Part shown: positions 3,189-51,535 of the stretch, piece after piece
Numbering within the stretch: the stretch's first letter is position 1
How the letters are laid out: each line of letters begins with the position of its first letter
Source of the DNA: Proteobacteria bacterium UBA981
GTDB lineage: Bacteria; Pseudomonadota; Gammaproteobacteria; Ga0077536
Direction: 5' to 3'
DNA length: 64,000 nucleotides
NCBI GenBank assembly: GCA_002292285.1
Contig: DBBP01000026.1
Coordinates: 30,209-94,208 of the forward strand
Translations under genes and position numbers: made by a program
The notes under the pieces: model-generated
What the model was told of the DNA's origin: nothing
Databases searched by the model: none
What the model saw: only the letters and a program-made list of their open reading frames with translations

Positions 3189-3195
3189 GCGAACA

Positions 3196-4565: not shown

Positions 4566-4780
4566 TCACTGGGAATTGGTGCCGCTGCACTGGCCAGCGT
4601 CCGCTACGCGGCAATGGTGGGATAACATGGCGGCCATTCTAACGCTAGAATATGGCCTCCGCAGGTACCTGATTACGGCTGTGCCCGCGGGCACTGTATC
4701 GAAACGCAACGGCTATTCGTACCCGATGCCATTTTGCATCGTCGAGGCAAATCAACATGCCCAGCGACCTTTAGATTTCG

Positions 4781-6160: not shown

Positions 6161-6264
6161 GCTTGGTTCCTGGTCACCTATCATGATGTTTCGGGCACAG
6201 TCGCGCACAGTGACGTTGTTATGACCGTGGTCGTGAGCAAAATACTAACTAGCGCAGCGCATCT

Positions 6265-20137: not shown

Positions 20138-20181
20138 GTTTTTACTGTCGCCCCGGGCAGGACCCAGGCTACGTTTACGGC

Positions 20182-23628: not shown

Positions 23629-25515
23629 ATGAATAGCGACGCCGAATTCAGCGTTCCGTATCCGCCCACCAGTCGCTCATACTGGATTGGCGGTGTGTTT
23701 ATATTCTTGGTTTCGGTCGTGGTGTACGCGCCCGGAAATTTTTTCGTTTCCTGGGACCTTTCAACATACCTGGCGTGCGCCCGCAATCTCCTCGACGGCG
23801 CCGGTTTCGTCGATCCTGTTGGACAAGCGGTCGAGAGTCGACTGGGGTTCATAGTGATCCTCGCCGGCGCACTGATCGCTGGCGGGGAATCCCTCGCTAC
23901 GATCGCAGCTGTCGAGACTCTCGGCAGTGCGCTTTTTGTCACGGCCATGTTTCTGCTCGCCTATCGTCTGTTTGGGCCGTTAATCGCTTTTGTGGCCAGC
24001 GGCCTGTTTTTACTATCCCCGGATTGGAATTTTTGGTTACCCCGGCATCTGGACCCGTTCTGGCCCGGGTTCGTACTTTGCAGTCTCGTGGCTTTGCTGA
24101 ACACCAAAGGACGCTTCGAGTGGATGGTTGGAATAGTCGCGGCCTGCTGGCTCGTGTTGGCTTATTCAATCAAGGAAACCGCGATACTTTTTCTACTCGG
24201 GTATGGCGTGCTGCTGTATCTCGGTGCGCTCCCTGGGACAAAAATTCGAACTTGGTGGTTTGTCGGTTCGGTTGTGTTTGCTGCGAGTGTCTTCATTGGC
24301 CTGCGCATATTCGCCGAGGCGGCACCTGTTAACCCGTACGCGGGCGGCCGTCTGAATGTGATTGCAGAACTCTTCAACGACCGGAGCCTCGTTGGCGGCA
24401 TTCTGGCCAGTGCGCAGTGGGCAGCAGTGGGCATCGTGCGCGCGATGTTCGGTTTTTTTGGTGACAGCCGTCTGTTGACAGTGATGCCTTTGTTGCCTGT
24501 GTTCGCCGTCGGATTTGTCATGCACTGCGTGCTGGCACTCAGGGGCCGACCCAGCGACCAGATCATCGTAGTGATGTTCATCGCCTATTTGCCGTTCATG
24601 GCGTTGATCGGCCAGATGAATTTTCGACCGTCCCAGAATCTCTTCTCTGTCGCGCTGATGTATATCTCTATTGCTGCGCTGATCGTTCGTGCAGGGGGCT
24701 TGCTGACTTCCCGACGCTGGTGCCAAGTCTTGAGTGTGGCCATCCTCGCGCTGTTATGCGCGGCATGGCAGGTGGACAACGGCGTTCTAACGATTTCCAA
24801 AAGCTCAGCGCGTAATTATTTTTGGCGAGCATGTTGTGCCCGGCCGGGCACACAGGCATTTGCGCCGCGACTTCGCGGTACGGCGGTCGCAGCTTGGGTG
24901 AACGACAATATTCCACCTGGTGAAACCATCGTAATCGGTGACGCGCCGACGCAGCATGGCATTAATTTCCTGAACGGTCAGCGCAATAAAATCGCTTTCC
25001 CGCCGATTTTCAATCTGACTTTTTCCGGGGCCTGGGCGGATTCTCCACTTGCGCCGCCGGGCTCTGCAAACTACGTCGTCGCGGCAGTCTGGCCCGGGAA
25101 AATATTTCCGCGGCCAGTATTTTTGCTTGAACCGGATTGGTTCATCGAACGCATGGCAGAGTTACAGGCCACCACGATCATATTGTCCAGCGTTGGCATC
25201 GACCCGGCGATCGCACATTGGTTACGTGAAGGTGCTGGGCTCACGCCATTGGCGACAATTGCCAGGCGCAAACGCCATTACGACGTGTACGACATCTCGC
25301 CCTTGCTATCGCGCGAATTTTCGAGATCTCGACAATTGATAGTCAATGACGATTTTTTGCAATACCTGCGGAGAGTCAAAGAAGAGCACCCGGAACATTG
25401 GCAGTGGTATTTGGACGAGCTGTTTGACGACAGATTGAATCTTGACGCCAAAGTTGCGGAGCAGGTGGCGGCGGGTGAATTACCGCCCGAGTTCGCCGTA
25501 CTACCTCGCGAGTAG
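23629..25515 (+). CDS. GT-C fold membrane glycosyltransferase (ArnT/PMT-like, GT39/GT83-type; polyprenyl-phosphate-sugar dependent)
   Basis: 628 aa. Ten or more N-terminal TM helices with an ArnT/PMT_2-like pattern (SWDLSTYLACARNLLDGAGF; ...LLSPDWNFWLPRH...), and a C-terminal soluble domain of about 230 aa. Confidence 0.6.
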   Translation: MNSDAEFSVPYPPTSRSYWIGGVFIFLVSVVVYAPGNFFVSWDLSTYLACARNLLDGAGFVDPVGQAVESRLGFIVILAGALIAGGESLATIAAVETLGSALFVTAMFLLAYRLFGPLIAFVASGLFLLSPDWNFWLPRHLDPFWPGFVLCSLVALLNTKGRFEWMVGIVAACWLVLAYSIKETAILFLLGYGVLLYLGALPGTKIRTWWFVGSVVFAASVFIGLRIFAEAAPVNPYAGGRLNVIAELFNDRSLVGGILASAQWAAVGIVRAMFGFFGDSRLLTVMPLLPVFAVGFVMHCVLALRGRPSDQIIVVMFIAYLPFMALIGQMNFRPSQNLFSVALMYISIAALIVRAGGLLTSRRWCQVLSVAILALLCAAWQVDNGVLTISKSSARNYFWRACCARPGTQAFAPRLRGTAVAAWVNDNIPPGETIVIGDAPTQHGINFLNGQRNKIAFPPIFNLTFSGAWADSPLAPPGSANYVVAAVWPGKIFPRPVFLLEPDWFIERMAELQATTIILSSVGIDPAIAHWLREGAGLTPLATIARRKRHYDVYDISPLLSREFSRSRQLIVNDDFLQYLRRVKEEHPEHWQWYLDELFDDRLNLDAKVAEQVAAGELPPEFAVLPRE

Positions 25516-25620: not shown

Positions 25621-27666
25621 ATGCAACTGAATCGGCTGGCGATTGAACAAAAAAAGCGACGTGAGGACCGGAGCGAACTAGGGCCAAGCGGGCTCTTGAG
25701 CCTCACAATCAAGCAGAGATGCTGGAAATATCGTATCGGGCTGCGAGTTTGTTCCGTAATAGAATTAATCCGTGATCAACGATTATTTCATTTGTCCAGG
25801 CGGAACTACCGAGTGCAAATAAACAGGGACATTCACGGCGTCGTATGTTGGTCGCTCGTAGTGCTGACGTTACTACTGGTACCGATATTCGCGCTGACTA
25901 CGGGGCCGGATTCCGTATTTTACCTGGAGAAGGGGCTCGACCTATATTTGGGGCGAGGATACGACCATCCGACACGGGGCCCGATTTTCGCGAGCATACT
26001 CGCGACCGCTTTCTCGGTACTGGGGCCCTCCGCGATTGTCGCCACAATCGTTGTTCGCACGTTTTTTCTTCTCAATGTATTAATGGTGTGGCTTTTAGCC
26101 AGACAGTTGTTCGGGGCTGCGGCCGCGAACTGCAGCGTGCTGTTGCTATTGAGTGCCGCGTTCGTGCATGAGTCGACCGGGACGATCGGGCTTGATGCGG
26201 TCTATCCCTTGTTCGTTCTAATCGGGATTTACTTTTCCGTCGTGAGCTTCGAACACGAACGTATCTGGCCAGCTATCGCTGCCGGAGCGAGCTTCGGAAT
26301 CGCGGTCCTTACAAAGGAACTCGCCTTACTCCACGTTGTCTTCCCGTTTGCTTATCTAGTGTTCGACGCGACCCTCAGAAACTCACGGAGGGCCTGGGGC
26401 AATGCTGCGGTCCAATATCTGGTCTGTGCTTTGGCGGTCACACCTTGGCTAATATTTCTCGCGCTGGGCGACGACGGCGTGGCCACCATGGTGGGGAAGG
26501 GCGGCCCCAAGAATCTGCATAAGCTTGCCAGCCTTGACGGGAATTCGTTGATCGATTCAATCAATTTTTATCTCAGCGGCATGCCGCAGTTTTTCCAGCG
26601 CTACGTAGCGCGCGAGTCCGCCATTTGGCCACTGTGGGCGGTTGCATGGGTCTATATGGGCTTCCTCGCTGTGCGCGAGCGCTCGGCGCGCGCTTTGGTC
26701 GTGGCGATTGCTTTGTTCATACCGGTTATGGTCGCCGAAGGGCACGTCTCCATCCGCATAGGACAGAACCACATAGCGTACTGTGTGTCGGTTATCGCAA
26801 GTGGGGCGTTATTGGGCAGAATAATTGACTACGGGTCGGCTCGTGTCTGGCCCAGGTTCGCGCAGGTGTGCCTGTATGTCATGGTCGTGGCGATCTCTAT
26901 CTATCAATTGACTACTGGTCGCGACAACGCACTGAATCGCATTAAGGGCAATTCGACTAGCGCGTTTTTGCTGACTCAAGGGACACTACCGGCCTGGCAA
27001 GTAAAAGGTACCCTCAACGATGATTCGCGGCGCGCCGCAGAATGGGTTTCCGCCAATCTGCCTGAAGGCGAACCGATAGTTGCCGATTATTTGTTGTTCC
27101 GTTCGATGTACGTGCAGTCAGGAGGTCGTTACCCGATCTACAAGTTCCCGTATGACAACCTCGACGTACAGTTGTCGTCGCAGCCGTCAGCGGCGTTTAA
27201 GGATGGCGACAACGAAGGACCGTTATTGTTTCTTTGGAGCCATGTCCGCAGGGATCGATTTTGCAATTGGCAAAGTTCACCATGCATCCTTTTTCACACG
27301 TTTTACGAAGGAACGTTTGCGAAATTTATGGCTGAGCGCGGCGCCCGCTACGTGGTTCTGGGTGCACGCACCTGGTTTCTCAGAGAGTACTTCGACGCTC
27401 ACCCCGCAGCGACACTGAAGCAAGTCATATCGGAGCGGATTCGCATTTACTCCGTTGATGTCGATCAGTCGGTTGGGGAATTCCCGCTGCGCGTAGGCGA
27501 GGAGGTACCGCGGTTGCTTAACAAGGTGGTCTCAGAAGTTCCTGCCGCCGTGCCTTGGTTCGACGAGACAGTACTGCATCAGACACTTCATCTTGAATTG
27601 ATCATTGCTGATCTTGTCAACGGTCCATCGCGCATCGCGCTTTTTCCTAAAGTACCGCCGCTCTAG
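25621..27666 (+). CDS. GT-C fold membrane glycosyltransferase (ArnT/PMT-like), second tandem copy
   Basis: 681 aa with the same architecture as the preceding gene (LGRGYDHPTRGPIFASILA..., multiple TM helices, large C-terminal soluble domain). The first 64 codons look non-coding; an in-frame GTG at 25813 preceded by AGGCGGA is a likely start. Confidence 0.6.
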   Translation: MQLNRLAIEQKKRREDRSELGPSGLLSLTIKQRCWKYRIGLRVCSVIELIRDQRLFHLSRRNYRVQINRDIHGVVCWSLVVLTLLLVPIFALTTGPDSVFYLEKGLDLYLGRGYDHPTRGPIFASILATAFSVLGPSAIVATIVVRTFFLLNVLMVWLLARQLFGAAAANCSVLLLLSAAFVHESTGTIGLDAVYPLFVLIGIYFSVVSFEHERIWPAIAAGASFGIAVLTKELALLHVVFPFAYLVFDATLRNSRRAWGNAAVQYLVCALAVTPWLIFLALGDDGVATMVGKGGPKNLHKLASLDGNSLIDSINFYLSGMPQFFQRYVARESAIWPLWAVAWVYMGFLAVRERSARALVVAIALFIPVMVAEGHVSIRIGQNHIAYCVSVIASGALLGRIIDYGSARVWPRFAQVCLYVMVVAISIYQLTTGRDNALNRIKGNSTSAFLLTQGTLPAWQVKGTLNDDSRRAAEWVSANLPEGEPIVADYLLFRSMYVQSGGRYPIYKFPYDNLDVQLSSQPSAAFKDGDNEGPLLFLWSHVRRDRFCNWQSSPCILFHTFYEGTFAKFMAERGARYVVLGARTWFLREYFDAHPAATLKQVISERIRIYSVDVDQSVGEFPLRVGEEVPRLLNKVVSEVPAAVPWFDETVLHQTLHLELIIADLVNGPSRIALFPKVPPL

Positions 27667-27673
27667 GTCATGG

Positions 27674-28675
27674 TCAGGGTCCGCGTACCCCCTCAGGCGC
27701 CTGCAGATTAAGCTTCAACTCGCTCGCATAATCCGACATAGGTTGGAATTCGAAGTCGTGCAGCAGGCGACAAAGTTTTGTATGCGCCGATTTTAACCCC
27801 GAGTAGTGGGACAGACGTTCTCGCGCAGTAGTGCATGACGGGCGCGGGTGATCAGGATCAAATTCCCAAGGATGAAAATAGAACACGACCGGCTCTCCGG
27901 CCCTGTTTTTAGAAGCTGTAATGCGTTTAACGAGAGAATAGGCGAGATTACGAAACCACACGCCGCCCGAAAACGGCAAGCGCTTCGCCCCTAGCGCAAC
28001 CGTTGTTATTGGTATTTCCACGAGAGAACCGCTGCCCGCGCCAACCACCGACGGGTAGGGGTTTGCTCCGGGCATGCCGTACAACGGGGTACGCACTGGA
28101 AAGACACTCGAATCATAGGATAGGCCACGATCTTGCAGCGCTTGCCAGAACCATGTTGTGTCGTCGCTAACCGAGGTATAGGCCGCCCGATAACCTTGAA
28201 TCGGCGTATCGACCACCGCCCGAACCGCTTCGTAATTTCGCTCTAAATCTTCGCGAAACTCGATTTCCGACATTTTGTCGACCCGCTGATGTCGGTTCCC
28301 ATGAAGGCCGATCTCATGACCGTGGCGGGCAATCTCTCGAAGTACATCCGGGGTTAATCTGGCGATCTCCCCAACGACAAAAAAGGTCGCTTTGATGCCG
28401 TACTGTTGAAATGTTTCGAGCAGGGTGCTGGTTTGGCGTTCTATGCGACTTTCGAATGTCGGCCAACGAGCGTATTGCACCGAGGTGCTCGTCAGCCCCT
28501 GGTACCACTCCTCGAAATCAACGCTGATGCAGTTGCTGATCATGCATCGAAGTATCTCATTTTTAGCACAAAGGCGTTCGGTGAGAATTCGCCCGTTCTT
28601 GTTTGGATGACGGAAATTCACAACAATCTGTCCGGCAGCCGGGGTCACGCTTGGCGTGCCATCGGGCCGCGACAA
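27674..28675 (-). CDS. Polysaccharide deacetylase (NodB-homology/CE4 family)
   Basis: Motifs ISVDFEEWYQ, ...EIARHGHEIGLHGNRHQRVDKMS..., LVEIPITT. 333 aa. An internal Met at about 28546 is an alternative start. Confidence 0.75.
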   Translation of the reverse strand: MSRPDGTPSVTPAAGQIVVNFRHPNKNGRILTERLCAKNEILRCMISNCISVDFEEWYQGLTSTSVQYARWPTFESRIERQTSTLLETFQQYGIKATFFVVGEIARLTPDVLREIARHGHEIGLHGNRHQRVDKMSEIEFREDLERNYEAVRAVVDTPIQGYRAAYTSVSDDTTWFWQALQDRGLSYDSSVFPVRTPLYGMPGANPYPSVVGAGSGSLVEIPITTVALGAKRLPFSGGVWFRNLAYSLVKRITASKNRAGEPVVFYFHPWEFDPDHPRPSCTTARERLSHYSGLKSAHTKLCRLLHDFEFQPMSDYASELKLNLQAPEGVRGP

Positions 28676-29025: not shown

Positions 29026-30126
29026 GTGGCGAACCACTCACCATGGCGTCAGCGTGGCTGCACAACTCATATGTTTTTTGATTTCTCAAATTTGCGCGCT
29101 TTCGGCTTTGGTGTCGGGGTGTTGCTATTTATCGGCATATTCATCGAGCTGAGGCGGCATCGAACCCGGCGGGTAAGTCCAGCCCCGGTTATTGTTTTCT
29201 CGCTCGTTCTAATGGCCGTTGCCCTTAATCCAGGGTTTGTCGATGCCCCCGCCAGATTTTTGGGATTTGAGGGAATTCCGCGCGGACGGCTACTCGCTTT
29301 GTTGCTGGTATCGGCGTTGCTCGTGTGGCCGGTGGCGATGCGTAACCGGAGTAAGATCAGCCAACTCCACACAGACCTGCTGGCGACTATCCGGCAGTTC
29401 GCCCTCCTCAATTTTCGCTCTACCTATGGTCAGTCGATCGATGCCGGCGCGATTTGGGTCGTCATACCTGTATTTAACGAAGTACAAAATATTCCTTCTG
29501 TGGTGCGGGAATTACCGGCGGTCGTAGGCGATGCGCCGGTGATTGTGCTCATCGTCGATGACGGCAGCTCAGATCAGTCGAGCGCCGTCGCTACGCAGGA
29601 GGGTGCCCGGGTCGCGCGATTACCACTGAATTGCGGCGGCGGTGTTGCGCTGCATGTTGGCTTTGAACTGGCCGTAAGTTTCGACGCCAGGCTTGTCGTT
29701 ACCATGGACGGAGACGGCCAGCATGATCCGCATCAGGTTAAGGACCTCGTCGAACCGATATTATCCGGCGAGGCAGACTTCGTTATCGGCTCGCGCATAC
29801 TCGGAGTGAACAATTCGCCCAATCGAACGAGAGCGGTGGGCATCCGCGTGTTTAGCCGGCTGATAAACCTCTTGACCGGCACGAGAATTACCGATTGTTC
29901 AAGCGGATTTCGCGCGATTTCTCTTGATGTTTTGACGGCAGTCAAGCTGATCGAGCCGCAGTACCACACGCCAGAACTCATAATCGCCACGGTTAAGCGC
30001 AACATGAATCTGGTCAAAGTGCCGATTCAAATTCGCCCGCGATTGTCCGGCGAAAGCAAGAAAGGCGCGAATCTCAAATATGGTTTCATGTTCGCACGCT
30101 CAATCGTCCGTGCCTGGCTTCGCTGA
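29026..30126 (+). CDS. GT2-family polyprenyl-phosphate sugar synthase (DPM1/GtrB/ArnC-like) with about 130-aa N-terminal two-TM extension
   Basis: Catalytic domain from about residue 145: IPVFNEVQNI...VIVLIVDDGSSDQS...TMDGDGQHDP (DxD/DAD-type motifs). Two hydrophobic helices precede it. Confidence 0.8.
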   Translation: MANHSPWRQRGCTTHMFFDFSNLRAFGFGVGVLLFIGIFIELRRHRTRRVSPAPVIVFSLVLMAVALNPGFVDAPARFLGFEGIPRGRLLALLLVSALLVWPVAMRNRSKISQLHTDLLATIRQFALLNFRSTYGQSIDAGAIWVVIPVFNEVQNIPSVVRELPAVVGDAPVIVLIVDDGSSDQSSAVATQEGARVARLPLNCGGGVALHVGFELAVSFDARLVVTMDGDGQHDPHQVKDLVEPILSGEADFVIGSRILGVNNSPNRTRAVGIRVFSRLINLLTGTRITDCSSGFRAISLDVLTAVKLIEPQYHTPELIIATVKRNMNLVKVPIQIRPRLSGESKKGANLKYGFMFARSIVRAWLR

Positions 30127-30590: not shown

Positions 30591-31676
30591 ATGAGTGGAG
30601 AACCAATGCTCAGTAATTATTTTGCTGGTGCAAGAATCGCCGTGACTGGCGCTGCGGGGACCGTCGGGTCTGAACTGGTCCGCCAGTTGCTTGACCTACC
30701 CGTTGCTGAAGTGCGTGCTTTGGATAATAACGAAAATGGATTGTTCTTTTTAGAGCAAAACTATCGTAGCGAACCCAGATTGCATGCTTTCCTGTGCGAT
30801 GTCCGAGAGCGCGACAAGCTCGATCGGATGCTGCCGGGTATGGACTATCTTTTTCATGTCGCCGCACTCAAACACGTGCCTTTGTGCGAGCGCAGTCCAA
30901 CCGAAGCCGTGCGTACAAATATCCTGGGTGTCGAGAACGTCATCCGCGCGTCAATTAACGCCGGGGTTCGCAAGGTGTTGTTTACAAGCTCGGACAAAGC
31001 GGTCAATCCGACCAATGTGATGGGCACATCGAAATTAATGGGGGAACGGCTCATTACAGCGGCCAACGCCTTGACCCAGACTGAGCACGGACCAATTTTC
31101 TCAGCGACTCGTTTTGGCAATGTTGCCGGTTCAGCCGGTTCAGTGGTCCCGTTGTTCTGCCATCAAATTGCCACCAACAAGAACGTCACGCTGACGCATC
31201 GCGAGATGACGCGCTTTCTGATGACGCTCCACGAGGCAGTGCGCCTGGTGTTGCTGTCGATGACGCTCGCCAAAGGCGGTGAGGTATTTGTGACCAAAAT
31301 GCCTGTCGCCCGCATCGAAGATATCGCGCAGGTGTTAGTCGATACCGTGGGCCCTGCCTGCGGGCGCGAACCGGATTCGATCACGATCGAGGAGGTTGGG
31401 CCGCGTCCCGGTGAAAAGATGTACGAAGAGCTGGTGAGTGACGAGGAAGTCCGGCGTACTTTCGAAATTGGCGATCTCTTTACGGTCTTGCCGGCATTCC
31501 ACAACATCTATAACAACATCAGTTTCGAATATCCCGGGTATGAGAAAAAGCCGATCGACCGGGTTTATAACTCCGAGGCTGAAACAGCCATGAGCGTTGA
31601 CGATTTGCGTGAATTTATGACCCTGCCTGGCGTGTTACCCGACGATGTCCGGGCGAAGCTGCGCCTGATTGATTAG
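30591..31676 (+). CDS. Short-chain CapD/PseB/FnlA-like UDP-HexNAc 4,6-dehydratase (Polysacc_synt_2 family)
   Basis: ARIAVTGAAGTVGSEL (Rossmann), ...YLFHVAALKHVPLCERSP... (YxxxK-region equivalent), SSDKAVNPTNVMGTSKLMGERL. The maximal ORF is from 30483; the Met at 30591 gives about 361 aa. Confidence 0.75.
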   Translation: MSGEPMLSNYFAGARIAVTGAAGTVGSELVRQLLDLPVAEVRALDNNENGLFFLEQNYRSEPRLHAFLCDVRERDKLDRMLPGMDYLFHVAALKHVPLCERSPTEAVRTNILGVENVIRASINAGVRKVLFTSSDKAVNPTNVMGTSKLMGERLITAANALTQTEHGPIFSATRFGNVAGSAGSVVPLFCHQIATNKNVTLTHREMTRFLMTLHEAVRLVLLSMTLAKGGEVFVTKMPVARIEDIAQVLVDTVGPACGREPDSITIEEVGPRPGEKMYEELVSDEEVRRTFEIGDLFTVLPAFHNIYNNISFEYPGYEKKPIDRVYNSEAETAMSVDDLREFMTLPGVLPDDVRAKLRLID

Positions 31677-31688
31677 GAACCACAAGGG

Positions 31689-32837
31689 ATGAAAATACTG
31701 ATACTGGGCGGTGACGGCTATCTCGGTTGGCCGACCGCAATGCACTTGAGCGCCCACGGGCACGACGTCGCTGTTGTCGACAATTATCTGCGGCGCCGAA
31801 TGAGTCTTGAGCAGGACGTTGGGCCGCTTTTCCCGGTTCCCAATCTGCATGAGCGTGCCAAGCTGTGGCGAGAAAAAAGTGGCAACGATGTTCGCGTGTT
31901 TGTGGGTGACATGAACGACTGGGATTTCGTTGCGTCGACGTTCACCGAATTCACGCCGGAAGTGATCGTGCATTACGCAGAGCAACCCTCGGCACCGTAT
32001 TCGATGCTCAATCGCGAGACAGCTACCTTAACCCTGCATAACAATCTCGGCGTGACCGCAAATACAATCTTTGCCGTTCGGGAGTTTGCGCCAGACGCCC
32101 ACATCGTCAAGCTCGGCACGATGGGTGAATACGGCACGCCGAACATCGATATCGAGGAGGGCTGGATCGATCTTGAGCACAAAGGCCGTAAAGACCGTTT
32201 CCTGTTCCCGCGCCAGGCCGGCAGCCTGTACCACACCACCAAAATCCAGGATACCGACTTGCTGTGGTTCTATGTGCGCGTCTGGGGACTGCGCGTGACT
32301 GACCTCATGCAAGGACCAGTTTACGGGCTTAGAACTTACGAAAACGACGGCGAGGAAGCGTTGCTGCCGTTTTTTAACTACGACGAAATTTTCGGCACCG
32401 TTGTTAATCGCTTCATTGTACAAGCGGTCGCCGGTTATCCGCTGACGGTTTACGGCAAGGGCGGACAGACGCGCGGTTATCTGAACATCAAGGACACGCT
32501 CAATTGTATTCGCCTGTCGATTGAGAACCCGGCCGATCGCGGTGAGCTGCGCGTGTTTAACCAATTCACCGAAACGTTTTCAGTGAATGAGTTAGCCGAG
32601 CGTGTGCAACAGTGTGGCTCGCGCAACGGCATCGAGGTCAAAATAGAAGCGCTCGAGAATCCGCGTAAGGAGCTTGAAGAGCACTATTACAACCCGGCCC
32701 ACACAGGCCTGCTTGAGCTGGGTCTTGAACCCCATTTCCTCACTGATGACGTGCTGGACGATATGCTGCAAACGGTGCTTCGATATAAAGGCGCCATTCG
32801 GAACGATGTTATTTTTCGTGGCGTCAAGTGGAACTGA
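31689..32837 (+). CDS. sqdB: UDP-sulfoquinovose synthase (SQD1/SqdB/Agl3 family)
   Basis: 382 aa, collinear with the recalled SQD1 sequence throughout: MKILILGGDGYLGW, EQPSAPYSM, HNN..GT.N..FA, KLGTMGEYGTPNIDIEEG, LYHTTK, TVYGKGGQTRGYL, RVFNQFTETFSVNELA, EEHYYN.AHT.L.ELGLEPH. Confidence 0.9.
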   Translation: MKILILGGDGYLGWPTAMHLSAHGHDVAVVDNYLRRRMSLEQDVGPLFPVPNLHERAKLWREKSGNDVRVFVGDMNDWDFVASTFTEFTPEVIVHYAEQPSAPYSMLNRETATLTLHNNLGVTANTIFAVREFAPDAHIVKLGTMGEYGTPNIDIEEGWIDLEHKGRKDRFLFPRQAGSLYHTTKIQDTDLLWFYVRVWGLRVTDLMQGPVYGLRTYENDGEEALLPFFNYDEIFGTVVNRFIVQAVAGYPLTVYGKGGQTRGYLNIKDTLNCIRLSIENPADRGELRVFNQFTETFSVNELAERVQQCGSRNGIEVKIEALENPRKELEEHYYNPAHTGLLELGLEPHFLTDDVLDDMLQTVLRYKGAIRNDVIFRGVKWN

Positions 32838-32920
32838 GCGCAGGCGCGATTCGACACCGGCGTGCTCGTCTTGCTCAGGCCGAGGAATGAAATCCAGCGG
32901 ACACGGGTAATGGACGCGGC

Positions 32921-34057
32921 ATGATCCGCGTCGCGCACATTATTACCGGGCTGGATGGCGGCGGCGCGGAGTTTATGCTGGCGCGTTTAGTGTCGGCGAT
33001 GCCGGCTACTGAATTCGAACACCATGTCATTTCATTGACTGGCGACGGCATCGTCGGGGCACTGCTGCGACAACATGGCGTTCCGGTACACCTGCTCGAA
33101 ATCCGAAAGAATATTGCTGCGCTTGGTTCGAACGCTCGTCTGCGCACCTGTCTACGCGATATCTCACCGTCGATTGTACAAACCTGGTTGTGCCACGCGG
33201 ATCTAATGGGCGGACTGGCGGCGCGCTTCAGCGCGCGCCTACCGGTAGTCTGGGGTGTCCATCAGTCTGATAACGGTGCGCAGTCATCCTGGTCGACCCG
33301 ACTCGTACTCGCAGCCTGTGCGCGTTTGTCATCACATATTCCTCAGCGCGTTATCTTCTGTTCGGAGAGTGCCCGGCAGTCGCGGGTTGTGGCTGGCTTT
33401 CCACCAGAGCGCTGCGAAGTCATCGCGAACGGCGTCGAAGCGACGGAATTTACCCGCAACGAACAAGAGGGTAGGGCCATTCGGGACCAATTAGGTATTC
33501 CCCGCGACGCGCTGGTAATCGCCTATCCGGCCAGATGGCATGTCGATAAAGACCCGCGAAATTTCTTTTCAGCAGCGGCGCTGATTCTCGCCGAACGGCC
33601 CGATGTTCAATTTTTGCTCTTTGGCACTGGGCTTGATGCCAGCAACATCGCTTTGATGGATGCGTTGCGCGAGGTTGAGAATCAAGAAGCCTTTCATTTG
33701 CTGGGCTTCAGAACGGATGTCGTGGCGCTCATGTCGGCATCCGACATGGGCTTGTTGTCATCACGAACCGAGGCGCTGCCGAACGTCATCATGGAAGGTA
33801 TGTCGTGCGGCCTGCCGTTCGTCGCCACCGACGTGGGGGATGTTGCGACACTGATCGGCGACGCCGGAACGGTCGTGCCAGCTCGCGATCCGCAGTCGCT
33901 CGCCACAGCTGTGCTCGCAATAGCGACAAGTGACGCACGCCAACTCGGACAACTTTCCGCTCAGGCGCGCAGGCGCATCGGGGAACATTATTCGCTGGCC
34001 CGAAGTGCCGACCGTTATGCCCACGTGTACCGTGAAGTACTCGGCGAAGTCGCGTGA
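32921..34057 (+). CDS. Glycosyltransferase family 1 (GT4-type)
   Basis: 378 aa. N-domain HIITGLDGGGAE; C-domain ...LLGFRTDVVALMSASDMGLLSSRTEALPNVIMEGMSCGLPFVATDVGD.... Confidence 0.8.
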   Translation: MIRVAHIITGLDGGGAEFMLARLVSAMPATEFEHHVISLTGDGIVGALLRQHGVPVHLLEIRKNIAALGSNARLRTCLRDISPSIVQTWLCHADLMGGLAARFSARLPVVWGVHQSDNGAQSSWSTRLVLAACARLSSHIPQRVIFCSESARQSRVVAGFPPERCEVIANGVEATEFTRNEQEGRAIRDQLGIPRDALVIAYPARWHVDKDPRNFFSAAALILAERPDVQFLLFGTGLDASNIALMDALREVENQEAFHLLGFRTDVVALMSASDMGLLSSRTEALPNVIMEGMSCGLPFVATDVGDVATLIGDAGTVVPARDPQSLATAVLAIATSDARQLGQLSAQARRRIGEHYSLARSADRYAHVYREVLGEVA

Positions 34058-34117
34058 GCATGATGATTTTGGTGCTGTTCGCAGCGCTCGAACGCCGCAA
34101 CCCACGGGCCTGATCTG

Positions 34118-36094
34118 ATGTGTGGCATTACCGGTATATTCGACGTTCGCGGTTTAGACGCGACAACCGCCCTGGATCTCGTCCAGCGCATGGGCAAGCG
34201 CATTCGACATCGCGGGCCCGATGACAGTGGCGAATGGTGTGATGCGACGGCAGGCATCGTGCTTGGTCAACGGCGGCTGTCCATTAACGATTTGTCTCCG
34301 GCCGGTCATCAGCCAATGATTTCCGCTAACGGTCGTTTTGTGATCGTACTGAACGGTGAAATCTATAACTTCATGGACCTGCGCGACGCGCTGGAGTTGG
34401 CCGGTTATCCTTTCCGAGGACACTCTGACACCGAGGTCGCTCTGGCTGCTATTCAGCACTACGGATTCGAAGCAGCACTAAAAATGTTCGTCGGCATGTT
34501 TGCTATCGGCTTGTGGGATCGCGAATCGCGCGCGCTTTATCTGGCTCGCGATCGCGTTGGCGAAAAACCCCTTTATTATTCTCGCGTCGGAAACGCATTC
34601 GCGTTTGCCTCCGATCTGGACGCCCTACGAGAACTACCTGGCTGGTCGCCTGAGATTGATCGGAACGCGCTCGGTTTGTTGATGCAACACTTCTACGTGC
34701 CGGCCCCACGCACTATTTATCGCGATGTCCACAAACTTATGCCGGGTAACTTGCTGACGCTAAGAGCAGACAACTACTCGCTAGAACCCGAACTGCGCAG
34801 TTATTGGTCGGCGGCCGATATTAGCGCCGGGCGAGTGCAATCTTCCGGTGCCCCCGACACGAACGCTGCAGTCGACGAGCTCGATACACTGCTACGCAAG
34901 ACGATTCGGGACAAGATGATTTCGGACGTTCCACTTGGCGCTTTCCTGTCTGGCGGGATCGACTCCTCTACAGTCGTCGCGCTGATGCAGGCTGAAAGCA
35001 TGAACAAGGTAAAGACGTTCAGTATCGGCTTCGGTGAAGCGGAATTTAATGAGGCGCACGAGGCTAAGCGGGTTGCCGAGCACTTGGGTACTGAGCACAC
35101 AGAGTTATACGTCTCTGCCGCACAAGCACAGTCTGTAATCCCCAAGCTGCCCGCCATGTATAGCGAACCCTTTGCGGACTCATCGCAAATCCCGACTTAT
35201 CTCGTTTCAGAGCTGGCCCGTCAGCAAGTGACAGTCGCACTTTCTGGCGACGGCGGTGATGAGCTGTTCGGCGGTTATTCTCGATATCTGCACGCGGAGT
35301 CTTCGTGGCAACGGATAAATCGGCTCCCCCGCGCGCTGCGTATCGCGCTGGGTGGTACCTTAGCTATGATTCCCCCGGCGCGAATTGATGCCATCATGCG
35401 ACCGCTAAAACCTATGCTGCCAGAACGCTGGCGCTACCAGCAGTTCGGCAACAAAATCCACAAGCTCGCAATACTCAGCGAATGTGATAATCCGATGTCA
35501 GTCTATCGGGCACTCATTAGCGCGTGGATGCGGCCATCGCAGGTTGTGATTGGCGGCGGCGACATCGATCTGATCGACACCATGCCCGCATCAATCAACG
35601 AGGTCTCGAGTTTTTCGGAACGCATGATGCTGATGGATTTGCTGACCTATCTGCCGGACGACATTCTCACTAAGGTTGATCGAGCCAGCATGTCCGAAAG
35701 TCTCGAGGTGAGGGTTCCGTTTCTTGACCATCGAGTCATCGAGCATGCGCTACGCTTACCGATTAGTTTGAAGGTCCGAGATGGCGAGGGAAAGTGGTTG
35801 TTGAAGCAGGTGCTCTATCGGTATGCGCCGAAAAGTTTGCTCGACCGACCCAAAATGGGCTTTGGTGTGCCGGTGGGGCAATGGTTGCGCGGGCCATTGC
35901 GGAGCTGGGCGGAGGACCTTCTGGACGGAACCCGATTGCAGCAGGATGGTTTTTTCCACGCGACAGTCGTGCGTGAAAAATGGTCAGAGCACCAGCGGGG
36001 CAAAGCGGACTGGTCCGCGCTGTTGTGGCCAATACTTATGTATCAAGCGTGGTTCGACCATTATGAGCGACATCCCGGGAGCCGTAGTGACTAG
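34118..36094 (+). CDS. asnB: Asparagine synthase (glutamine-hydrolysing)-family amidotransferase (AsnB/WbpS-like)
   Basis: N-terminal MCGITGIF (Ntn Cys2), RGPDDSG, ...NGEIYNF...; synthetase domain SGGIDSS (PP-loop). Confidence 0.85.
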   Translation: MCGITGIFDVRGLDATTALDLVQRMGKRIRHRGPDDSGEWCDATAGIVLGQRRLSINDLSPAGHQPMISANGRFVIVLNGEIYNFMDLRDALELAGYPFRGHSDTEVALAAIQHYGFEAALKMFVGMFAIGLWDRESRALYLARDRVGEKPLYYSRVGNAFAFASDLDALRELPGWSPEIDRNALGLLMQHFYVPAPRTIYRDVHKLMPGNLLTLRADNYSLEPELRSYWSAADISAGRVQSSGAPDTNAAVDELDTLLRKTIRDKMISDVPLGAFLSGGIDSSTVVALMQAESMNKVKTFSIGFGEAEFNEAHEAKRVAEHLGTEHTELYVSAAQAQSVIPKLPAMYSEPFADSSQIPTYLVSELARQQVTVALSGDGGDELFGGYSRYLHAESSWQRINRLPRALRIALGGTLAMIPPARIDAIMRPLKPMLPERWRYQQFGNKIHKLAILSECDNPMSVYRALISAWMRPSQVVIGGGDIDLIDTMPASINEVSSFSERMMLMDLLTYLPDDILTKVDRASMSESLEVRVPFLDHRVIEHALRLPISLKVRDGEGKWLLKQVLYRYAPKSLLDRPKMGFGVPVGQWLRGPLRSWAEDLLDGTRLQQDGFFHATVVREKWSEHQRGKADWSALLWPILMYQAWFDHYERHPGSRSD

Positions 36095-36176
36095 TCTCCA
36101 GGGTGTTGGGCGATGCCGGTGTGCTACGCCAGAGCCTGGCCAAATGCTCGGGCCAACTGCGCGCTTTTGCGCTTGA

Positions 36177-37367
36177 ATGGCCACTGAGGCGAAAGCGTCG
36201 CGGCATGCCATGCCAACCGTGCTGATGGTCGTCACCGAGGATTGGTACTTCATCTCTCATCGCCTGGATCTCGCTTGTCATATTCGCGACGCCGGGTTCA
36301 GGGTTGTTGTCGCAACCCGTGTCGGTGCCCACGAACCAACCATCATTGCAGCGGGTTTGGAGTTTGTTCGGATCCCATTCGAGCGTTCGTTGCGCCATCC
36401 CGTCCGTGATCTGCAAGCGCTGGTGGCTCTGAACAGAGCGATTGCACAATTGGAGCCCGACATCGTCCATTTGGTTTCGTTGAAACCAATATTGTTGGGT
36501 GCGATCGCATTGGCACGAAGACGTCACCGGGCGCCCGCAGTGTGGGCGTTTACTGGCATGGGTTATTTGTTTTCTTCAAACGGTTTCGTTGCGCGGGTGA
36601 TGCGGCCACTCGTTTCGGGCGCACTGAAGCACCTCAATCAAGGGTCTCGCTGCGCGATGATGGTACAGAACGATGCCGATGCCGCCTTACTTCATGAACT
36701 TGGTATCGCGTTACCTGCTCACACGACGATTGTTCCGGGCAGCGGGCTTGCCATGGATAAATTCTCACCAGCCTCGGGCGCGCCGGAAGGGCCGTCGATC
36801 GTACTCATGCCTGCCCGCTTACTGCGCGATAAAGGCATCTACGAATTCGCCGCCGCGGCGCGCCTTGTCCATCAACAGCATCCGCACGTTCGCTTTGTTC
36901 TGGCTGGGCGTTTCGACCGCGATAACCATGGCGCAGTGGCTAACCAGGATCTGCAAACCTGGATTGACGAAGATTTACTCGAATGGTGGGGGCATCGCGA
37001 GGACATGCTGGAAGTCTATCGCCTGGCCTCGATTGTTTGTTTGCCGTCGTATCGCGAAGGCTTGCCCAGAGTCTTGCTAGAGGCCGGAGCGTGCGCGAAG
37101 CCGCTGGTTGCGACTGATGTACCCGGTTGTCGCGATGTTTGCGTCGATGGTAAAACGGGATTGAGGGTCCCTGTCTGTGACAGTGCTGCGCTTGCAACAG
37201 CCATCAGTACGCTGCTCAGCGATCCCGCATACGCACATGCGCTTGGGCTTGCCGCCCGAGAGTTGGTTCGGGAGCGATTTACGATTGAATCAATCGGTGA
37301 ACAAACGATTGCGATGTATCGCGACTTGCTGGTGCGTGCTGCCCAGTCGGACGGGCTATCACGATGA
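36177..37367 (+). CDS. Glycosyltransferase family 1 (GT4-type)
   Basis: C-domain ...ASIVCLPSYREGLPRVLLEAGACAKPLVATDVPGCRDV... (E-x7-E). The likely start is Met 12 (36210). Confidence 0.8.
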   Translation: MATEAKASRHAMPTVLMVVTEDWYFISHRLDLACHIRDAGFRVVVATRVGAHEPTIIAAGLEFVRIPFERSLRHPVRDLQALVALNRAIAQLEPDIVHLVSLKPILLGAIALARRRHRAPAVWAFTGMGYLFSSNGFVARVMRPLVSGALKHLNQGSRCAMMVQNDADAALLHELGIALPAHTTIVPGSGLAMDKFSPASGAPEGPSIVLMPARLLRDKGIYEFAAAARLVHQQHPHVRFVLAGRFDRDNHGAVANQDLQTWIDEDLLEWWGHREDMLEVYRLASIVCLPSYREGLPRVLLEAGACAKPLVATDVPGCRDVCVDGKTGLRVPVCDSAALATAISTLLSDPAYAHALGLAARELVRERFTIESIGEQTIAMYRDLLVRAAQSDGLSR

Positions 37368-38335
37368 CGTCTGCAAGAATAGTTGTGACCGGGGCCGACG
37401 GCTTTGTTGGGCAGAGGCTGTGTGCACGACTCGAGCGCGAGGGCTGGGATGTGCACAAGGTTGTCCGCCGAAGCTCGACCAACGCGCCATCATCCACCAG
37501 CAGCATAATTAGTGATTTGACGGAGTTTTCGGACTGGCCGACGCTGCTTGATGGTGCCCGCGCGGTCGTGCACCTCGCGGCCATGACTCACTCAGGTGGT
37601 TTGCGCGGCGGTGCTGCGCTCGAACGGTACCGCTCGTTGAATGTTGACGTCAGTGGAAACCTGGCGAGAGCGGCACAAGCGTGCGGCGTCTCGAAATTCG
37701 TGTATATGAGCTCCATTAAAGTGAACGGTGAATCTTCCCGCACCGCGGACGGCCGTATGCATGCGTTTAGTCCGAGCGACGTCCCGGCACCGATCGACAA
37801 CTACGGTCGCACTAAATGGGAAGCGGAGAAAAAGCTTGATTCGATACTTGCGGGTTCGTCGACACAATTAACAATTCTGCGACCGCCGCTGATTTTCGGT
37901 CCCGGGCAGAAAGCCAACATACAGCGCCTCATGCGCGCGGTCGCCCGCGAGGCGACGCTGCCGTTCGGCGGGCTTGAGAATCGCCGCAGCTATATCTACG
38001 TCGATAATCTTGCCGCTGCGGTCGCGTTGGCACTGCGGGGACACGACCTTACAGCGCGGACCTACACGCTGGCTGACGTGACCCTGTCTACCCCTGAGCT
38101 GATCCTCGCCATGGCGAAAGCCCTGGGCGTGCCCGTCTCGATGGCCGGTTTGCCGCGTTTCGTTTACCGCGGGCTTGAGCTATTACCGGGGATTGGCCCG
38201 AAAATATCCCGTTTGACGGGTGATTTGGCGGTTGATTCGAGCGCTGCAATTGAGCTGCTGGGTTGGCGGTCTGAAGTAGAGTTCGAGGCTGCGCTAGCCG
38301 TGACCGCCGCGTGGCTCCGCCAGGAACCAGCATGA
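37364..38335 (+). CDS. NAD-dependent sugar-nucleotide epimerase/reductase (short SDR; WbpK/WbpV-like UDP-HexNAc 4-epimerase/4-reductase)
   Basis: RIVVTGADGFVGQRL Rossmann motif, 323 aa. The ATGA overlap with the next gene suggests translational coupling. Confidence 0.75.
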   Translation: MTSARIVVTGADGFVGQRLCARLEREGWDVHKVVRRSSTNAPSSTSSIISDLTEFSDWPTLLDGARAVVHLAAMTHSGGLRGGAALERYRSLNVDVSGNLARAAQACGVSKFVYMSSIKVNGESSRTADGRMHAFSPSDVPAPIDNYGRTKWEAEKKLDSILAGSSTQLTILRPPLIFGPGQKANIQRLMRAVAREATLPFGGLENRRSYIYVDNLAAAVALALRGHDLTARTYTLADVTLSTPELILAMAKALGVPVSMAGLPRFVYRGLELLPGIGPKISRLTGDLAVDSSAAIELLGWRSEVEFEAALAVTAAWLRQEPA

Positions 38336-39351
38336 GTCTGGCGCATATTCTTGGTGTTTTTCTGGTTAGTGCCACGTCGTCGTGGCTGGGCTGCCGCTAT
38401 TTATTGCCACGCTTGTCGGCGGCCGGTATGTGGGACGCGCCGAACCACCGCAGTTTGCACGCCCGCCGCGTGCCGCGCGGGGCGGGACTAGCAATCGCGG
38501 CGGTGGGTCTGGTGATGCTTGCCTGGCTAGTCGCAATCGAGTTGCTGCCCGCACGGAGCGGGGGTATTTTGTTCCTCGCCGGAACCGGCTTCGCCTTTTT
38601 AGGGTGGGATGACGACCGCCACGACCGCTCGGCTGTGCTGCGCCTAATCTGCCAGTTTTCGCTGGCGATTTTTTGTGTCTACGGGATTGGGCTCACTGGA
38701 GACTTCGATGGCGCGTATTGGTGGGGTACCGGTTTCGTTGTGTTCGGATTCGTGTGGCACGTTAACGTGTTTAATTTTATGGATGGCGCTGACGGATTTG
38801 CTGCCGTGCAGGCGATTCTGGTCTGCATTGCGATATGCGCGCTCAATGCGCTGAACAGTCACAGTGGTATCGCGCTGTGGGCGGCCGCGGTCGCTGCAGC
38901 AACCATCGGATTCCTGTACTGGAACTGGGCGCCTGCGAAAATGTTCCTCGGCGACTGTGGCAGTTACTTTCTGGGCTACGTCATTGCAGCGCTTATTTTT
39001 ATCTCTTATTTGAGTGGCGCTTCTTTCGCAGCGTTGGTGATTCTGATCGCGCCGTTCGTTACTGACGCGACATTGACCCTGATCTGGCGAGCACTTCGTG
39101 GTCAACCGTGGTGGCGAGCGCATCGCAGCCACGCTTACCAAAGGCTGGTGTTGTGTGGACGGGCGCCGGCGCAGGTCGCGTTCGGGCTCGCGGCGCTTAA
39201 TGTGGCATTGTGCTGGCCACTGTCGTGGTTGGCGAGTCGTTCGACACACGACAATGTCGTTGCCCTGTTTGCCTACATCCTAACTGGTATTATGTGGGCC
39301 TCCATCGTGCGGGCTAACGGCGATACAGAATCAACTTCGCCAGGTGCTTAA
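38332..39351 (+). CDS. Undecaprenyl-phosphate HexNAc-1-phosphate transferase (MraY/WecA/WbpL family; initiating transferase)
   Basis: NVFNFMDGADG (NxxNxxDGxDG) motif, about 10 TM helices. Start at 38332 (MSLAHILG) overlaps the upstream stop (ATGA). Confidence 0.8.
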   Translation: MSLAHILGVFLVSATSSWLGCRYLLPRLSAAGMWDAPNHRSLHARRVPRGAGLAIAAVGLVMLAWLVAIELLPARSGGILFLAGTGFAFLGWDDDRHDRSAVLRLICQFSLAIFCVYGIGLTGDFDGAYWWGTGFVVFGFVWHVNVFNFMDGADGFAAVQAILVCIAICALNALNSHSGIALWAAAVAAATIGFLYWNWAPAKMFLGDCGSYFLGYVIAALIFISYLSGASFAALVILIAPFVTDATLTLIWRALRGQPWWRAHRSHAYQRLVLCGRAPAQVAFGLAALNVALCWPLSWLASRSTHDNVVALFAYILTGIMWASIVRANGDTESTSPGA

Positions 39352-39394
39352 AGCGCTGGGCTACCTGCGCGCCAGCAACGGAACTTAGATCCCG

Positions 39395-41278
39395 ATGTCG
39401 ATCAGTCCGCGGATTAAGATAATTGCCCACGATCTGTTACAGATCGCGCTGGCCTGGATGCTCGCGTGGCTGGCGCGTTTTAACTTCGATTTGCCGCCGC
39501 AGCCGTTTCTGGATTCGAGTCTTAATGCTCTACCGGTCGTGATTGTGACCCAAGCGGCAATCGCCTGGTATTTTGGCCTGTACCGCGGCCTGTGGCGCTT
39601 CGCGAGCCTCCCGGATCTTTCTAATATTCTGCGCGCCGCGGGGCTGGGCGCCTTGCTCGCGGCCATCGTCCTGTTTCTCGTCAATCGTCTGGACGCGACG
39701 CCACGCTCAGTACTTATTTTGTATCCGGTGTTTTTGGTATTTCTGTTGGGCGGCCCGCGATTGCTCTACCGAATTTGGAAAGACCATGCTTTGCATCTCC
39801 AAACGAATGCAGATGCTCAGCGTGTCATCGTGGTTGGCGGCGGCAACGGCGGTGAGATGCTCATTCGTGACATGTTGCGCGAAGGCAATTACATCCCGGT
39901 TGGGCTCGTCGATGACAACGCGCAGCTGCAACGCTCCAATATTCACGGTGTACCGGTGCTCGGCCAGATTGCGGAGTTGTCCCGTATCGTGCAGCGCCGT
40001 GAAGTCGATCTCCTCGTTATCGCGATTCCGTCGGCAAACAGTGAACAAATGCGGCGCATCGTCGAGTCATGCGAAGCAACCGGGAGGCCATTTCGAACAC
40101 TGCCTCAACTTGACGATTTGTTATCCGGTCGCAGTGGGATAAGTACGCTGCGAGAGGTGTCGCTCGAAGATTTGCTCGGTCGCGACAAAGTTGAGCTGGA
40201 GTGGCAGGCTATTCAATCGTCAATCTCCGGTGAAACAGTACTGGTAAGTGGAGGTGGCGGATCGATAGGTTCTGAGTTGTGCCGCCAGATTGCGACATTG
40301 GGCGTCGCACGTTTGGTTGTTCTCGACAACAGCGAACACAATCTGTACGTGATTGAAAAGGAACTACGGCGTTCCTCACCTGGGTTGAGAGTCGAGTGTT
40401 TGCTCGCTGATGTGCGCGACGGCGTTGCTATCGAGCGCGCATTCTCGACTTTCACGCCGTCCCTGGTGTTTCATGCGGCAGCCTACAAACACGTCCCGAT
40501 ATTACAGACCCAGATTCGCGAAGCAGTCGCGGTAAATGTTCTCGGTACGCTTGAAATGATGAACTGTGCTGACCGCTATGGCTGCTCGAGCTTTGTTCTG
40601 ATTTCTACAGACAAGGCTGTGCGTCCCAGCAGTGTTATGGGTGCCACCAAACGACTTGCCGAGCTGGTTTGCGAGGCGCGTTACCCGCACTCGGATACTA
40701 AGTTTATTACCGTGAGATTCGGCAATGTGCTGGGTTCGGCGGGCAGTGTTGTGCCGCTGTTTCGTGAGCAGATTGCAGCGGGTGGGCCGCTAACGGTTAC
40801 TCACGCTGACGCGACCCGCTACTTCATGACCATCCCCGAGGCGTGTCAGCTGATTATGCAAGCCGGTGCTGTGGGCAGCGGTGGCGAAATATTCGTGCTT
40901 GATATGGGCGAGCCGGTCAATATTACGTACCTCGCAGAGCAGTTAATCAGACTGTCCGGGCACACGCCCGGACTCGACATCGAGATCGTCTACACCGGGC
41001 TGAGGCCAGGCGAGAAACTCAGTGAGGAACTGTTTCGCGACGACGAACATCTGGATCCCACGTCGCACGACAAATTGCTGCTCGCTCAACACGTTCATAA
41101 TGACCGCAACCATATTGAGCAGCTGCTCAGCGATCTGCGTAGCTCGGTCGACGCCTTCGACGAGGAATCGATTACGGCGCTTCTCAGCCAGGCGGTTCCG
41201 GAGTTTGATGTCGTCACAGACAAAAACACCGCCGTCGGCGCGGACAATATCGTTTCATTTTCTCGGAGTGTTCAATGA
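39395..41278 (+). CDS. wbpM: Membrane-anchored UDP-GlcNAc 4,6-dehydratase (WbpM/PglF/CapD large type)
   Basis: 627 aa. N-terminal 4 TM helices, then two Rossmann-like segments ([31 protein letters not shown]) and [24 protein letters not shown] (catalytic region). Confidence 0.85.
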
Positions 41279-51523: not shown

Positions 51524-51535
51524 GCATCTGAATCG

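Follow-up and report, generated by a model that had tools for sequence, protein, structure and literature searches.

A Pen/CapD-like dehydratase and an SQD1-family enzyme encoded side by side in bacterial glycan loci: a putative cassette for a C6-sulfonated UDP-sugar

The window analysed here is a 64,000-nucleotide stretch of contig DBBP01000026.1 from Proteobacteria bacterium UBA981. At 31689..32837 (+ strand) it holds an open reading frame (ORF) for a 382-residue short-chain dehydrogenase/reductase (SDR) of the SQD1/SqdB family (clade A, see below), which starts with ATG and has AAGGG 3–4 nucleotides (nt) upstream. The stop codon of another SDR gene lies 12 nt before this ATG; its product (30606..31676, + strand; longest ORF from 30483), termed the partner below, is a 356-residue Pen/CapD-like dehydratase of the Polysacc_synt_2 family (PF02719). 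These are the first two of nine + strand genes (30606..42159) that are spaced by 12–83 nt or overlap. The SqdB-like gene is followed by a glycosyltransferase of family GT4 (32921..34057, 378 residues), a candidate sulfosugar transferase that is not SqdX-like and is not conserved between loci; an AsnB-type glutamine amidotransferase (34118..36094; XrtA/PEP-CTERM-type, WbpS-like); a second GT4 glycosyltransferase (36177..37367); an extended SDR (epimerase/reductase, 37364..38335) whose gene overlaps those on both sides; and the initiating enzyme, a WecA/WbpL-family polyprenyl-phosphate N-acetylhexosamine (HexNAc)-1-phosphate transferase (38311..39351). The last two genes code for a WbpM/PglF-like membrane-anchored UDP-N-acetylglucosamine (UDP-GlcNAc) 4,6-dehydratase (39395..41278) and for GalU, UTP-glucose-1-phosphate uridylyltransferase (41275..42159; TIGR01099, 374 bits against a cutoff of 327), whose gene overlaps the wbpM stop codon. 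A WecA/WbpL-family initiator, nucleotide-sugar genes and several glycosyltransferases in one operon are what characterizes a locus for an undecaprenyl-diphosphate-linked glycan of the O-antigen/Wzy type or a related one. The first-pass annotation had described these neighbours (the CapD-like gene, the GT4s, the AsnB-like gene, the WbpL/WbpM pair and galU) in the same terms, and Pfam and NCBIfam matches agree with it.

The SqdB-like protein belongs to the SQD1/SqdB/Agl3 family (EC 3.13.1.1). In a phmmer search of the PDB it aligns with Arabidopsis SQD1 (1qrr/1i24) over residues 2–381 with zero gaps (E 3e-136, 50% identity), whereas the next-best families, UDP-glucuronate decarboxylase and GalE, reach only E 7e-12 to 1e-3 and the similarity to Pal (6bwl) is negligible (E 3e-4). 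The full-length SQD1/SqdB-family ORF of the first-pass annotation therefore stands, and an ordinary 4-epimerase, which it had named as the alternative, is excluded by the distance between these scores. The four motifs quoted at the time, KLGTMGEYGTPNIDIEEG, TVYGKGGQTRGYL, RVFNQFTE.FSVNELA and EEHYYN, are all present in the translation and align with SQD1; further family signatures are GGDGYLGW (the GxxGxxG NAD site), GTMGEYG and YHTTK. The NCBIfam model for UDP-sulfoquinovose synthase, NF041015, matches end to end (455 bits, E 2e-136). Its curated equivalog cutoff of 575 bits was dropped as a criterion of membership and is uninformative, because the characterized Arabidopsis SQD1 (483 bits) and Sinorhizobium (S. 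meliloti) SqdB (332 bits) also score below it; the top score, 555 bits, goes to clade C, which is uncharacterized. The JGI annotation names the window protein UDP-sulfoquinovose synthase. Pipeline annotation based on NF041015 is uneven across the family, most members being called just 'NAD-dependent epimerase/dehydratase'.

The catalytic Thr/Tyr/Lys triad and His183 are conserved. In SQD1 numbering (window numbering in brackets) the protein keeps T145 (T144), M146 (M145), E148 (E147), Y149 (Y148), Y182 (Y181), H183 (H182) and K186 (K185), and from sequence its predicted role is the addition of sulfite. Three residues are replaced: R101 by Pro (P100), R229 by Phe (F228) and D231 by Asn (N230). 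When SQD1-family homologues were clustered at 50% identity and a tree was built from the representatives, three groups emerged, which differ at these positions. Clade A (P101, neither R229 nor D231) comprises the window protein and its relatives. Clade B, or R-type (R101, R229, D231), contains plant SQD1 and those genes of Sinorhizobium, Marinovum and Microbulbifer which lie beside sqdD/sqdC or a gene for an SqdX-like glycosyltransferase. Clade C (P101, R229, D231) is large, with haloarchaea and many uncultured bacteria, and is often found in glycan loci with sulfotransferases. Pro occupies position 101 without exception in the 85 loci, and likewise in the 120 database homologues nearest to the window protein. 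As a marker of clade A, P101 alone was rejected: clade C shares it but retains R229/D231 and lacks a Pen-like partner. R101, R229 and D231 are retained in every SqdB found with a lipid-glycosyltransferase partner; the products of sqdB genes with sqdD/sqdC or sqdX-like partners are all R-type and 38–41% identical to the window protein (R-type bacterial SqdBs overall, 38–53%). The R101A mutant of Agl3 is inactive (PMC4388408). A role for R101 modelled on GalE K84 and WbpP G102, a position that is a sugar-contacting wall in related epimerases, is kept as a lead only, since published mutants do not bear out a simple rule that would equate a small residue with N-acetyl substrates (bioRxiv 10.1101/2020.05.26.111013).

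Two genomes carry more than one clade. A deltaproteobacterial metagenome-assembled genome (MAG) (L038, 6359-7507 and 10001-11146) has an R-type gene at a distance of 2.5 kb from a clade-A gene, and in a Rubrobacteraceae MAG (L049, 10001-11146 and 19366-20511) clades A and C are both represented in one cluster. The clades are thus unlikely to be redundant, which suggests different products for clade A and the R-type. The product of clade A may not be plain sulfoquinovose, because clade A is distinct and lacks Arg101 and Arg229/Asp231, and because L038 carries an R-type gene as well. Automatic annotations of 'UDP-sulfoquinovose synthase' span at least three clades, with characterized members in one only. 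Clade-C genes (L092, L093, L095) adjoin genes for a 3'-phosphoadenosine-5'-phosphosulfate (PAPS)-dependent sulfotransferase and sulfatase-family proteins in glycan clusters, and such genes also stand beside a partner homologue in a locus with the partner only (L102:3755-4687); C-sulfonation and O-sulfation may be combined in one glycan of some bacteria.

Many SQD1-family homologues are 680–1100 residues long. In twelve of them (P0126, P0133, P0145, P0152, P0159, P0163, P0164, P0174, P0186, P0200-P0202) the SqdB sequence is split by insertions of ∼ 300–400 residues at recurring points, after about residue 144 (within the catalytic GT|MGEYG), ∼ 192 and ∼ 235; these look like inteins. Four others (P0168, P0238, P0248, P0261) have C-terminal extensions of ∼ 430 residues. 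A CapD–SqdB fusion, which would have been Rosetta-stone evidence, was rejected, as the long homologues are explained by insertions or C-terminal extensions.

The partner matches PF02719 with E 3e-93, and its best match in the PDB is Pen of Bacillus thuringiensis (6bwc; E 1e-75, 40% identity). It carries the motif SSDK...VMGTSK ([ST]DKxnMx3K), so the [ST]DK acid/base pair is present. Pen is a UDP-GlcNAc 5,6-dehydratase; the 5,6-dehydratases listed in a review are TunA, Pen and SQD1/Agl3 only, and all the characterized Polysacc_synt_2 dehydratases it covers act on UDP-GlcNAc (PMC8987622).

The two genes are found together far beyond the window. We collected 80 genome loci coding for proteins 60–83% identical to the SqdB-like protein, clustered all their neighbours and read the taxonomic groups from the record titles. 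A tblastn search found a partner homologue in 74 of the 80, and two more loci are truncated. In 60 loci this homologue is the immediate upstream neighbour on the same strand, separated by less than 200 nt, and its stop codon often overlaps the start codon of the SqdB-like gene. One seeming exception, L038, is not a real one, since its contig carries the partner at a distance of ∼ 15 kb (L133). The next most conserved neighbour occurs in at most 36 loci, and glycosyltransferases and other genes vary from locus to locus. Paired loci span at least 12 phylum-level groups. Represented are Gamma-, Alpha-, Beta- and Zetaproteobacteria, Magnetococcales, Desulfobacterota, Myxococcota, Verrucomicrobiota, Planctomycetota including anammox bacteria, Chloroflexota, Actinomycetota (Rubrobacter), Acidobacteriota, Gemmatimonadota, Bacteroidota and one archaeon; named carriers of clade-A loci include Desulfatibacillum alkenivorans DSM 16219 (L011), Histidinibacterium aquaticum (L022) and Rubrobacter marinus (L046).

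The reverse test gave the same picture. With the partner as query against metagenomes, and the neighbours of each homologue inspected, 40 of the 56 homologues with at least 47% identity have a clade-A SqdB gene next to them; the sequence ends too early in nine, which leaves 40 of 47 informative cases. At 39–46% identity the count is 0 of 24. A partner orthologue is absent from all ten control loci with an R-type or clade-C SqdB. Because genome pairing, reverse test and control loci agree, we regard the partner as a subfamily dedicated to this pairing, and the gene pair as a module. The CapD-like gene, which the first-pass annotation had taken as mere flanking context, is the sole neighbour family conserved with the clade across phyla. 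The same annotation had pointed to galU as the source of the UDP-glucose substrate. galU does close the locus, but the argument is weak, because no more than 2 of the 80 other loci have GalU along with the cassette. The neighbour found in 36 loci is a third SDR (SDR3, ∼ 330 residues, FASSGAP...PYGASK; FASSGAP..PYGASKLAGEGYCSAY) that comes after the SqdB-like gene (for example L006:8951-9958, L048:11140-12135, L015:11140-12165 and L074:11219-12211; L095:7197-8183 follows a clade-C gene). The window has no copy of it, the extended SDR at 37364..38335 being a different protein. SDR3 may epimerize or reduce the sulfosugar, and could bear on the biosynthesis of sulfofucose, a sugar produced by Thermoplasma acidophilum, which has an SqdB homologue.

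A further link to sulfite comes from cysH. PAPS/adenosine-5'-phosphosulfate (APS) reductase generates sulfite, and a CysH gene is present in eight of the 80 loci, in seven of them within 3.5 kb and on the same strand; L052, L071 and L074, for example, have the order CysH–SDR–partner–SqdB–SDR. The eight loci represent five phyla and come from Verrucomicrobiota, Chloroflexota (three), Bacteroidota and Alpha-, Gamma- and 'Delta'-proteobacteria. All five CysH genes that were scored pass NF002537 (phosphoadenylyl-sulfate reductase) with 235–261 bits against a cutoff of 154. Four further cases were found in metagenome loci and none in the ten control loci. About 0.6 CysH loci would be expected by chance, a rough estimate (∼ 1.5 cysH per 4-Mb genome, 20-kb windows) rather than a computed statistic. 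A dedicated PAPS/APS reductase in the operon of related loci supports sulfite chemistry. Elsewhere, in L137 (704-2672) and L141 (1846-5199), dehydratases of the partner subfamily adjoin genes for CysH and a methyltransferase while SqdB-like genes are absent from the nearest 4–5 kb, and the connection of partner and sulfite supply may not always run through an adjacent SqdB-like enzyme.

We consider it probable, although with substantial doubt, that 30606..31676 and 31689..32837 form a two-enzyme cassette for a C6-sulfonated UDP-sugar that feeds the O-antigen-type glycan of the operon. We infer the order of steps, the substrate and the product from characterized relatives. The Pen/CapD-like SDR would oxidize a UDP-hexose at C4 and eliminate water across C5–C6 to give a 5,6-ene, as from B. 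thuringiensis Pen; by family precedent the substrate would be UDP-GlcNAc. The SQD1-like enzyme, by homology to SQD1 and Agl3, would use its bound NAD+ to form the 4-keto-5,6-ene, add sulfite onto C6 and re-reduce C4. The product would be UDP-6-deoxy-6-sulfo-GlcNAc (UDP-6-sulfo-N-acetylquinovosamine, UDP-6-sulfo-QuiNAc), or UDP-sulfoquinovose if the pair acts on UDP-glucose. The adjacent GT4 would then transfer the sulfosugar to the undecaprenyl-diphosphate-linked repeat begun by the WbpL-like transferase. Agl3 forms UDP-glucose-5,6-ene when sulfite is missing (PMC4388408), which makes a 5,6-ene a plausible intermediate for hand-over. Together with the relationship to Pen and the UDP-GlcNAc substrates of Polysacc_synt_2 dehydratases, this makes UDP-6-sulfo-QuiNAc the simplest outcome, and we favour it over plain UDP-sulfoquinovose as the product. 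More tentatively, and at somewhat less than even odds, we suggest a widespread two-enzyme pathway to UDP-2-acetamido-2,6-dideoxy-6-sulfo-D-glucose ('N-acetylsulfoquinovosamine'), or to an epimer of it where SDR3 is present, that would place C-sulfonated amino sugars in the surface glycans of at least 12 phyla, some with a PAPS/APS reductase of their own. The literature we searched, coverage of which is incomplete, holds no account of such a cassette, nor does it describe a sulfonated HexNAc or a part for sqdB in making bacterial polysaccharide, capsule or extracellular polysaccharide.

Several observations weigh against this proposal. In the partner a Met replaces the catalytic Tyr of Pen (Yx3K), as in PglF and CapE (PMC8987622 Table 1). 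FnlA-like 4,6-dehydratase/epimerases are nearly as close to it (37%) as Pen (40%), and no sequence signature tells 5,6- from 4,6-dehydratases; its product may be a 4-keto-6-deoxy sugar, which would be unable to accept sulfite. If R101 and R229 bind sulfite in SQD1, clade A may not use sulfite at all. Seven of the partner homologues with at least 47% identity have no adjacent SqdB, two of these having CysH and a methyltransferase, and the trees of the two genes are weakly congruent (a mirror-tree test of co-evolution gave r = 0.23, too weak to use). SQD1 and Agl3 work without a helper enzyme. In the window itself there is no cysH, and the galU of the operon is compatible with UDP-glucose as the substrate.

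In a rival scheme, the SqdB-like enzyme alone converts UDP-glucose from GalU and sulfite to UDP-sulfoquinovose for the polysaccharide, and the CapD-like gene makes an unrelated 6-deoxy-HexNAc of the same repeat. The 50% identity to SQD1, the retention of all catalytic residues, the JGI label and the translational coupling of galU at the operon end fit this scheme, and the dedicated CysH of related loci would suit any user of sulfite. We nevertheless judge it unlikely. It gives no reason for the position of the partner immediately upstream in 60 of 80 loci that otherwise differ, or for the existence of a separate partner subfamily, found beside SqdB-like genes and otherwise not. Moreover, Arg101, essential in Agl3 (PMC4388408), is Pro throughout the clade, L038 has an R-type gene in addition to its clade-A gene, and GalU is rare elsewhere. 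The sulfonated surface glycan proposed in the first-pass annotation thus draws support from the glycan operon and the CysH loci, while its stand-alone SqdB making sulfoquinovose is doubtful, given a clade without Arg101 and a paired dehydratase. Another alternative is a sugar without sulfonation, the SQD1-like enzyme being no longer able to add sulfite: it would handle the product of the partner in the manner of Pal (5,6-ene to 4-keto-6-deoxy) or add another nucleophile. Pen–Pal is a precedent for such a split dehydratase (PMC8987622), two arginines conserved in all SqdBs found with a lipid-glycosyltransferase partner are gone, and many related loci hold genes for a DegT aminotransferase or NeuB. 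We think this improbable, since the SQD1-specific TMGEY and YHxxK motifs are kept, the similarity to Pal is negligible, PAPS/APS reductase genes lie within the eight genome and four metagenome loci described above, and genes of the pseudaminic acid (Pse) pathway are not generally present.

Classical sulfolipid synthesis was also considered. The adjacent GT4 would then be an SqdX-like diacylglycerol sulfoquinovosyltransferase and the UDP-sulfoquinovose would serve sulfoquinovosyldiacylglycerol (SQDG). SqdX and SQD2 are indeed GT4 enzymes, and the place of the 378-residue GT4 after sqdB is also that of sqdX in some cyanobacteria (PMC13436972); a gene for the alkaline phosphatase PhoX also adjoins the locus. 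An SQDG operon is recognized by an adjacent SqdX (GT4) or SqdD (GT8), and neither was found in the window: it has no SqdD homologue, and its GT4s show no more than generic GT-B similarity to an SqdX-like transferase encoded next to sqdB elsewhere. For the downstream GT4 the match to the Microbulbifer transferase is generic and covers only 50 residues, and this GT4 is not conserved with clade A. The operon runs on into wbpL and wbpM, and, as noted above, the sqdB genes with sqdD/sqdC or sqdX-like partners are all R-type. The polysaccharide rather than sulfolipid context that had been proposed is therefore borne out, and a role in SQDG synthesis is very improbable.

The operon that holds the proposed cassette and the sugar genes upstream of it make up one large glycan region, from position 1 to ∼ 42 kb. 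A DUF2304–GT2 polyprenyl-phosphate glycosyltransferase (29026..30126, +; AglJ/PpgS/ArnC-like) is encoded 480 nt upstream of the cassette; by way of a lipid-phosphate-linked sugar it might give the sulfosugar another exit route. The same DUF2304–GT2 architecture is found directly downstream of the clade-C SqdB in L092. Further upstream are a polysaccharide deacetylase with DUF3473 (27674..28675, −) and a PMT_2 (ArnT-like GT-C) membrane glycosyltransferase (25621..27666, +); the segment 22728..30126 also holds a methyltransferase and an unassigned 628-residue ORF (23629..25515). This gene set resembles the ArnC/deacetylase/ArnT type of envelope-glycan decoration through a lipid-phosphate-linked amino sugar. 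Also upstream are methyltransferases, an AT3–SGNH O-acetyltransferase and genes of the WbpB/E/D/I-type diamino-uronic acid pathway. These include a WbpD-like hexapeptide acetyltransferase (406..1032), a 728-residue WbpB–WbpE-like fusion of a GFO/IDH/MocA oxidoreductase and a DegT aminotransferase (1002..3188) and a UDP-GlcNAc 2-epimerase (6265..7428); the content of 406..7428 suggests that a 2,3-diacetamido-uronic acid is made by a pathway whose oxidase and transaminase steps are fused.

No Wzx, Wzy or Wzz was recognized in the window by Pfam, where several membrane ORFs have no family assignment, and the window has no tRNA, rRNA or Rfam match. The nearest named relatives are MAGs of Gammaproteobacteria. 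The contig is found again in many metagenomes, and in every copy the gene for PhoX (42207..44066, −) abuts the end of the glycan operon, with unrelated genes beyond. Phosphate limitation is the classical trigger of sulfolipid substitution; PhoX might be co-regulated with a phosphate-free anionic glycan, or its position might equally be coincidence. Outside the main locus is a second GT2 and LPG_synthase_TM membrane-protein pair (50756..52531). Another LPG_synthase_TM ORF (19046..20293, −) overlaps an ORF for an amine-oxidase-like flavoprotein (20182..21525) by ∼ 110 nt; one of these two start codons is probably miscalled.

Sulfoquinovose is regarded as a product of phototroph sulfolipid synthesis, with archaeal N-glycans as the sole exception among glycans, in reviews up to 2026 (PMC13436972, PMC12421959). 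If the proposed pathway is correct, the cassette, conserved in polysaccharide loci of non-phototrophic bacteria from many phyla, would supply the sulfur cycle with C-sulfonated sugar from another source, which might also be of another chemical kind. It would add a pool of biogenic organosulfonate outside phototroph sulfolipids, with sulfate reducers, anammox bacteria, Chloroflexota and marine Gamma- and Alphaproteobacteria among the carriers, and would equip them with permanently anionic, phosphate-free surface glycans. An SQD1-type enzyme would be divisible into a dehydratase and a sulfite-adding half, and the loci would supply candidate genes for rare sulfosugars such as sulfofucose.

Among known systems, FnlA/CapE/WbjB and PglF/WbpM, which are 4,6-dehydratases acting on UDP-GlcNAc, are of the same Pfam family as the partner and have the [ST]DK...M-x3-K motif in common with it (PMC8987622). 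They are at most 37% identical to it. We know of no such enzyme that is paired with an SQD1-like enzyme. SQD1 of Arabidopsis and SqdB of cyanobacteria, Rhodobacter and Sinorhizobium, which serve SQDG synthesis, share with the SqdB-like protein the fold, the length, the NAD site, the Thr/Tyr/Lys triad, His183 and TMGEY. The window protein differs from them in belonging to a separate clade, in having no sqdX, sqdD or sqdC partner, in a Pen-like partner that we describe as obligate and in its place in a glycan operon. Agl3, the UDP-sulfoquinovose synthase for the N-glycan of Sulfolobus acidocaldarius, is likewise a glycan-feeding member of the SQD1 family with a 5,6-ene intermediate (PMC4388408); it is archaeal, however, works alone on UDP-glucose, requires Arg101 and serves protein N-glycosylation. 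The Pen–Pal pair of the B. thuringiensis pseudaminic acid pathway also consists of a Polysacc_synt_2 enzyme and a second extended SDR that takes over the 5,6-ene (PMC8987622). In the cassette described here the second enzyme is SQD1-like rather than Pal-like, Met replaces the catalytic Tyr in the partner, and genes of the Pse pathway do not accompany the pair.

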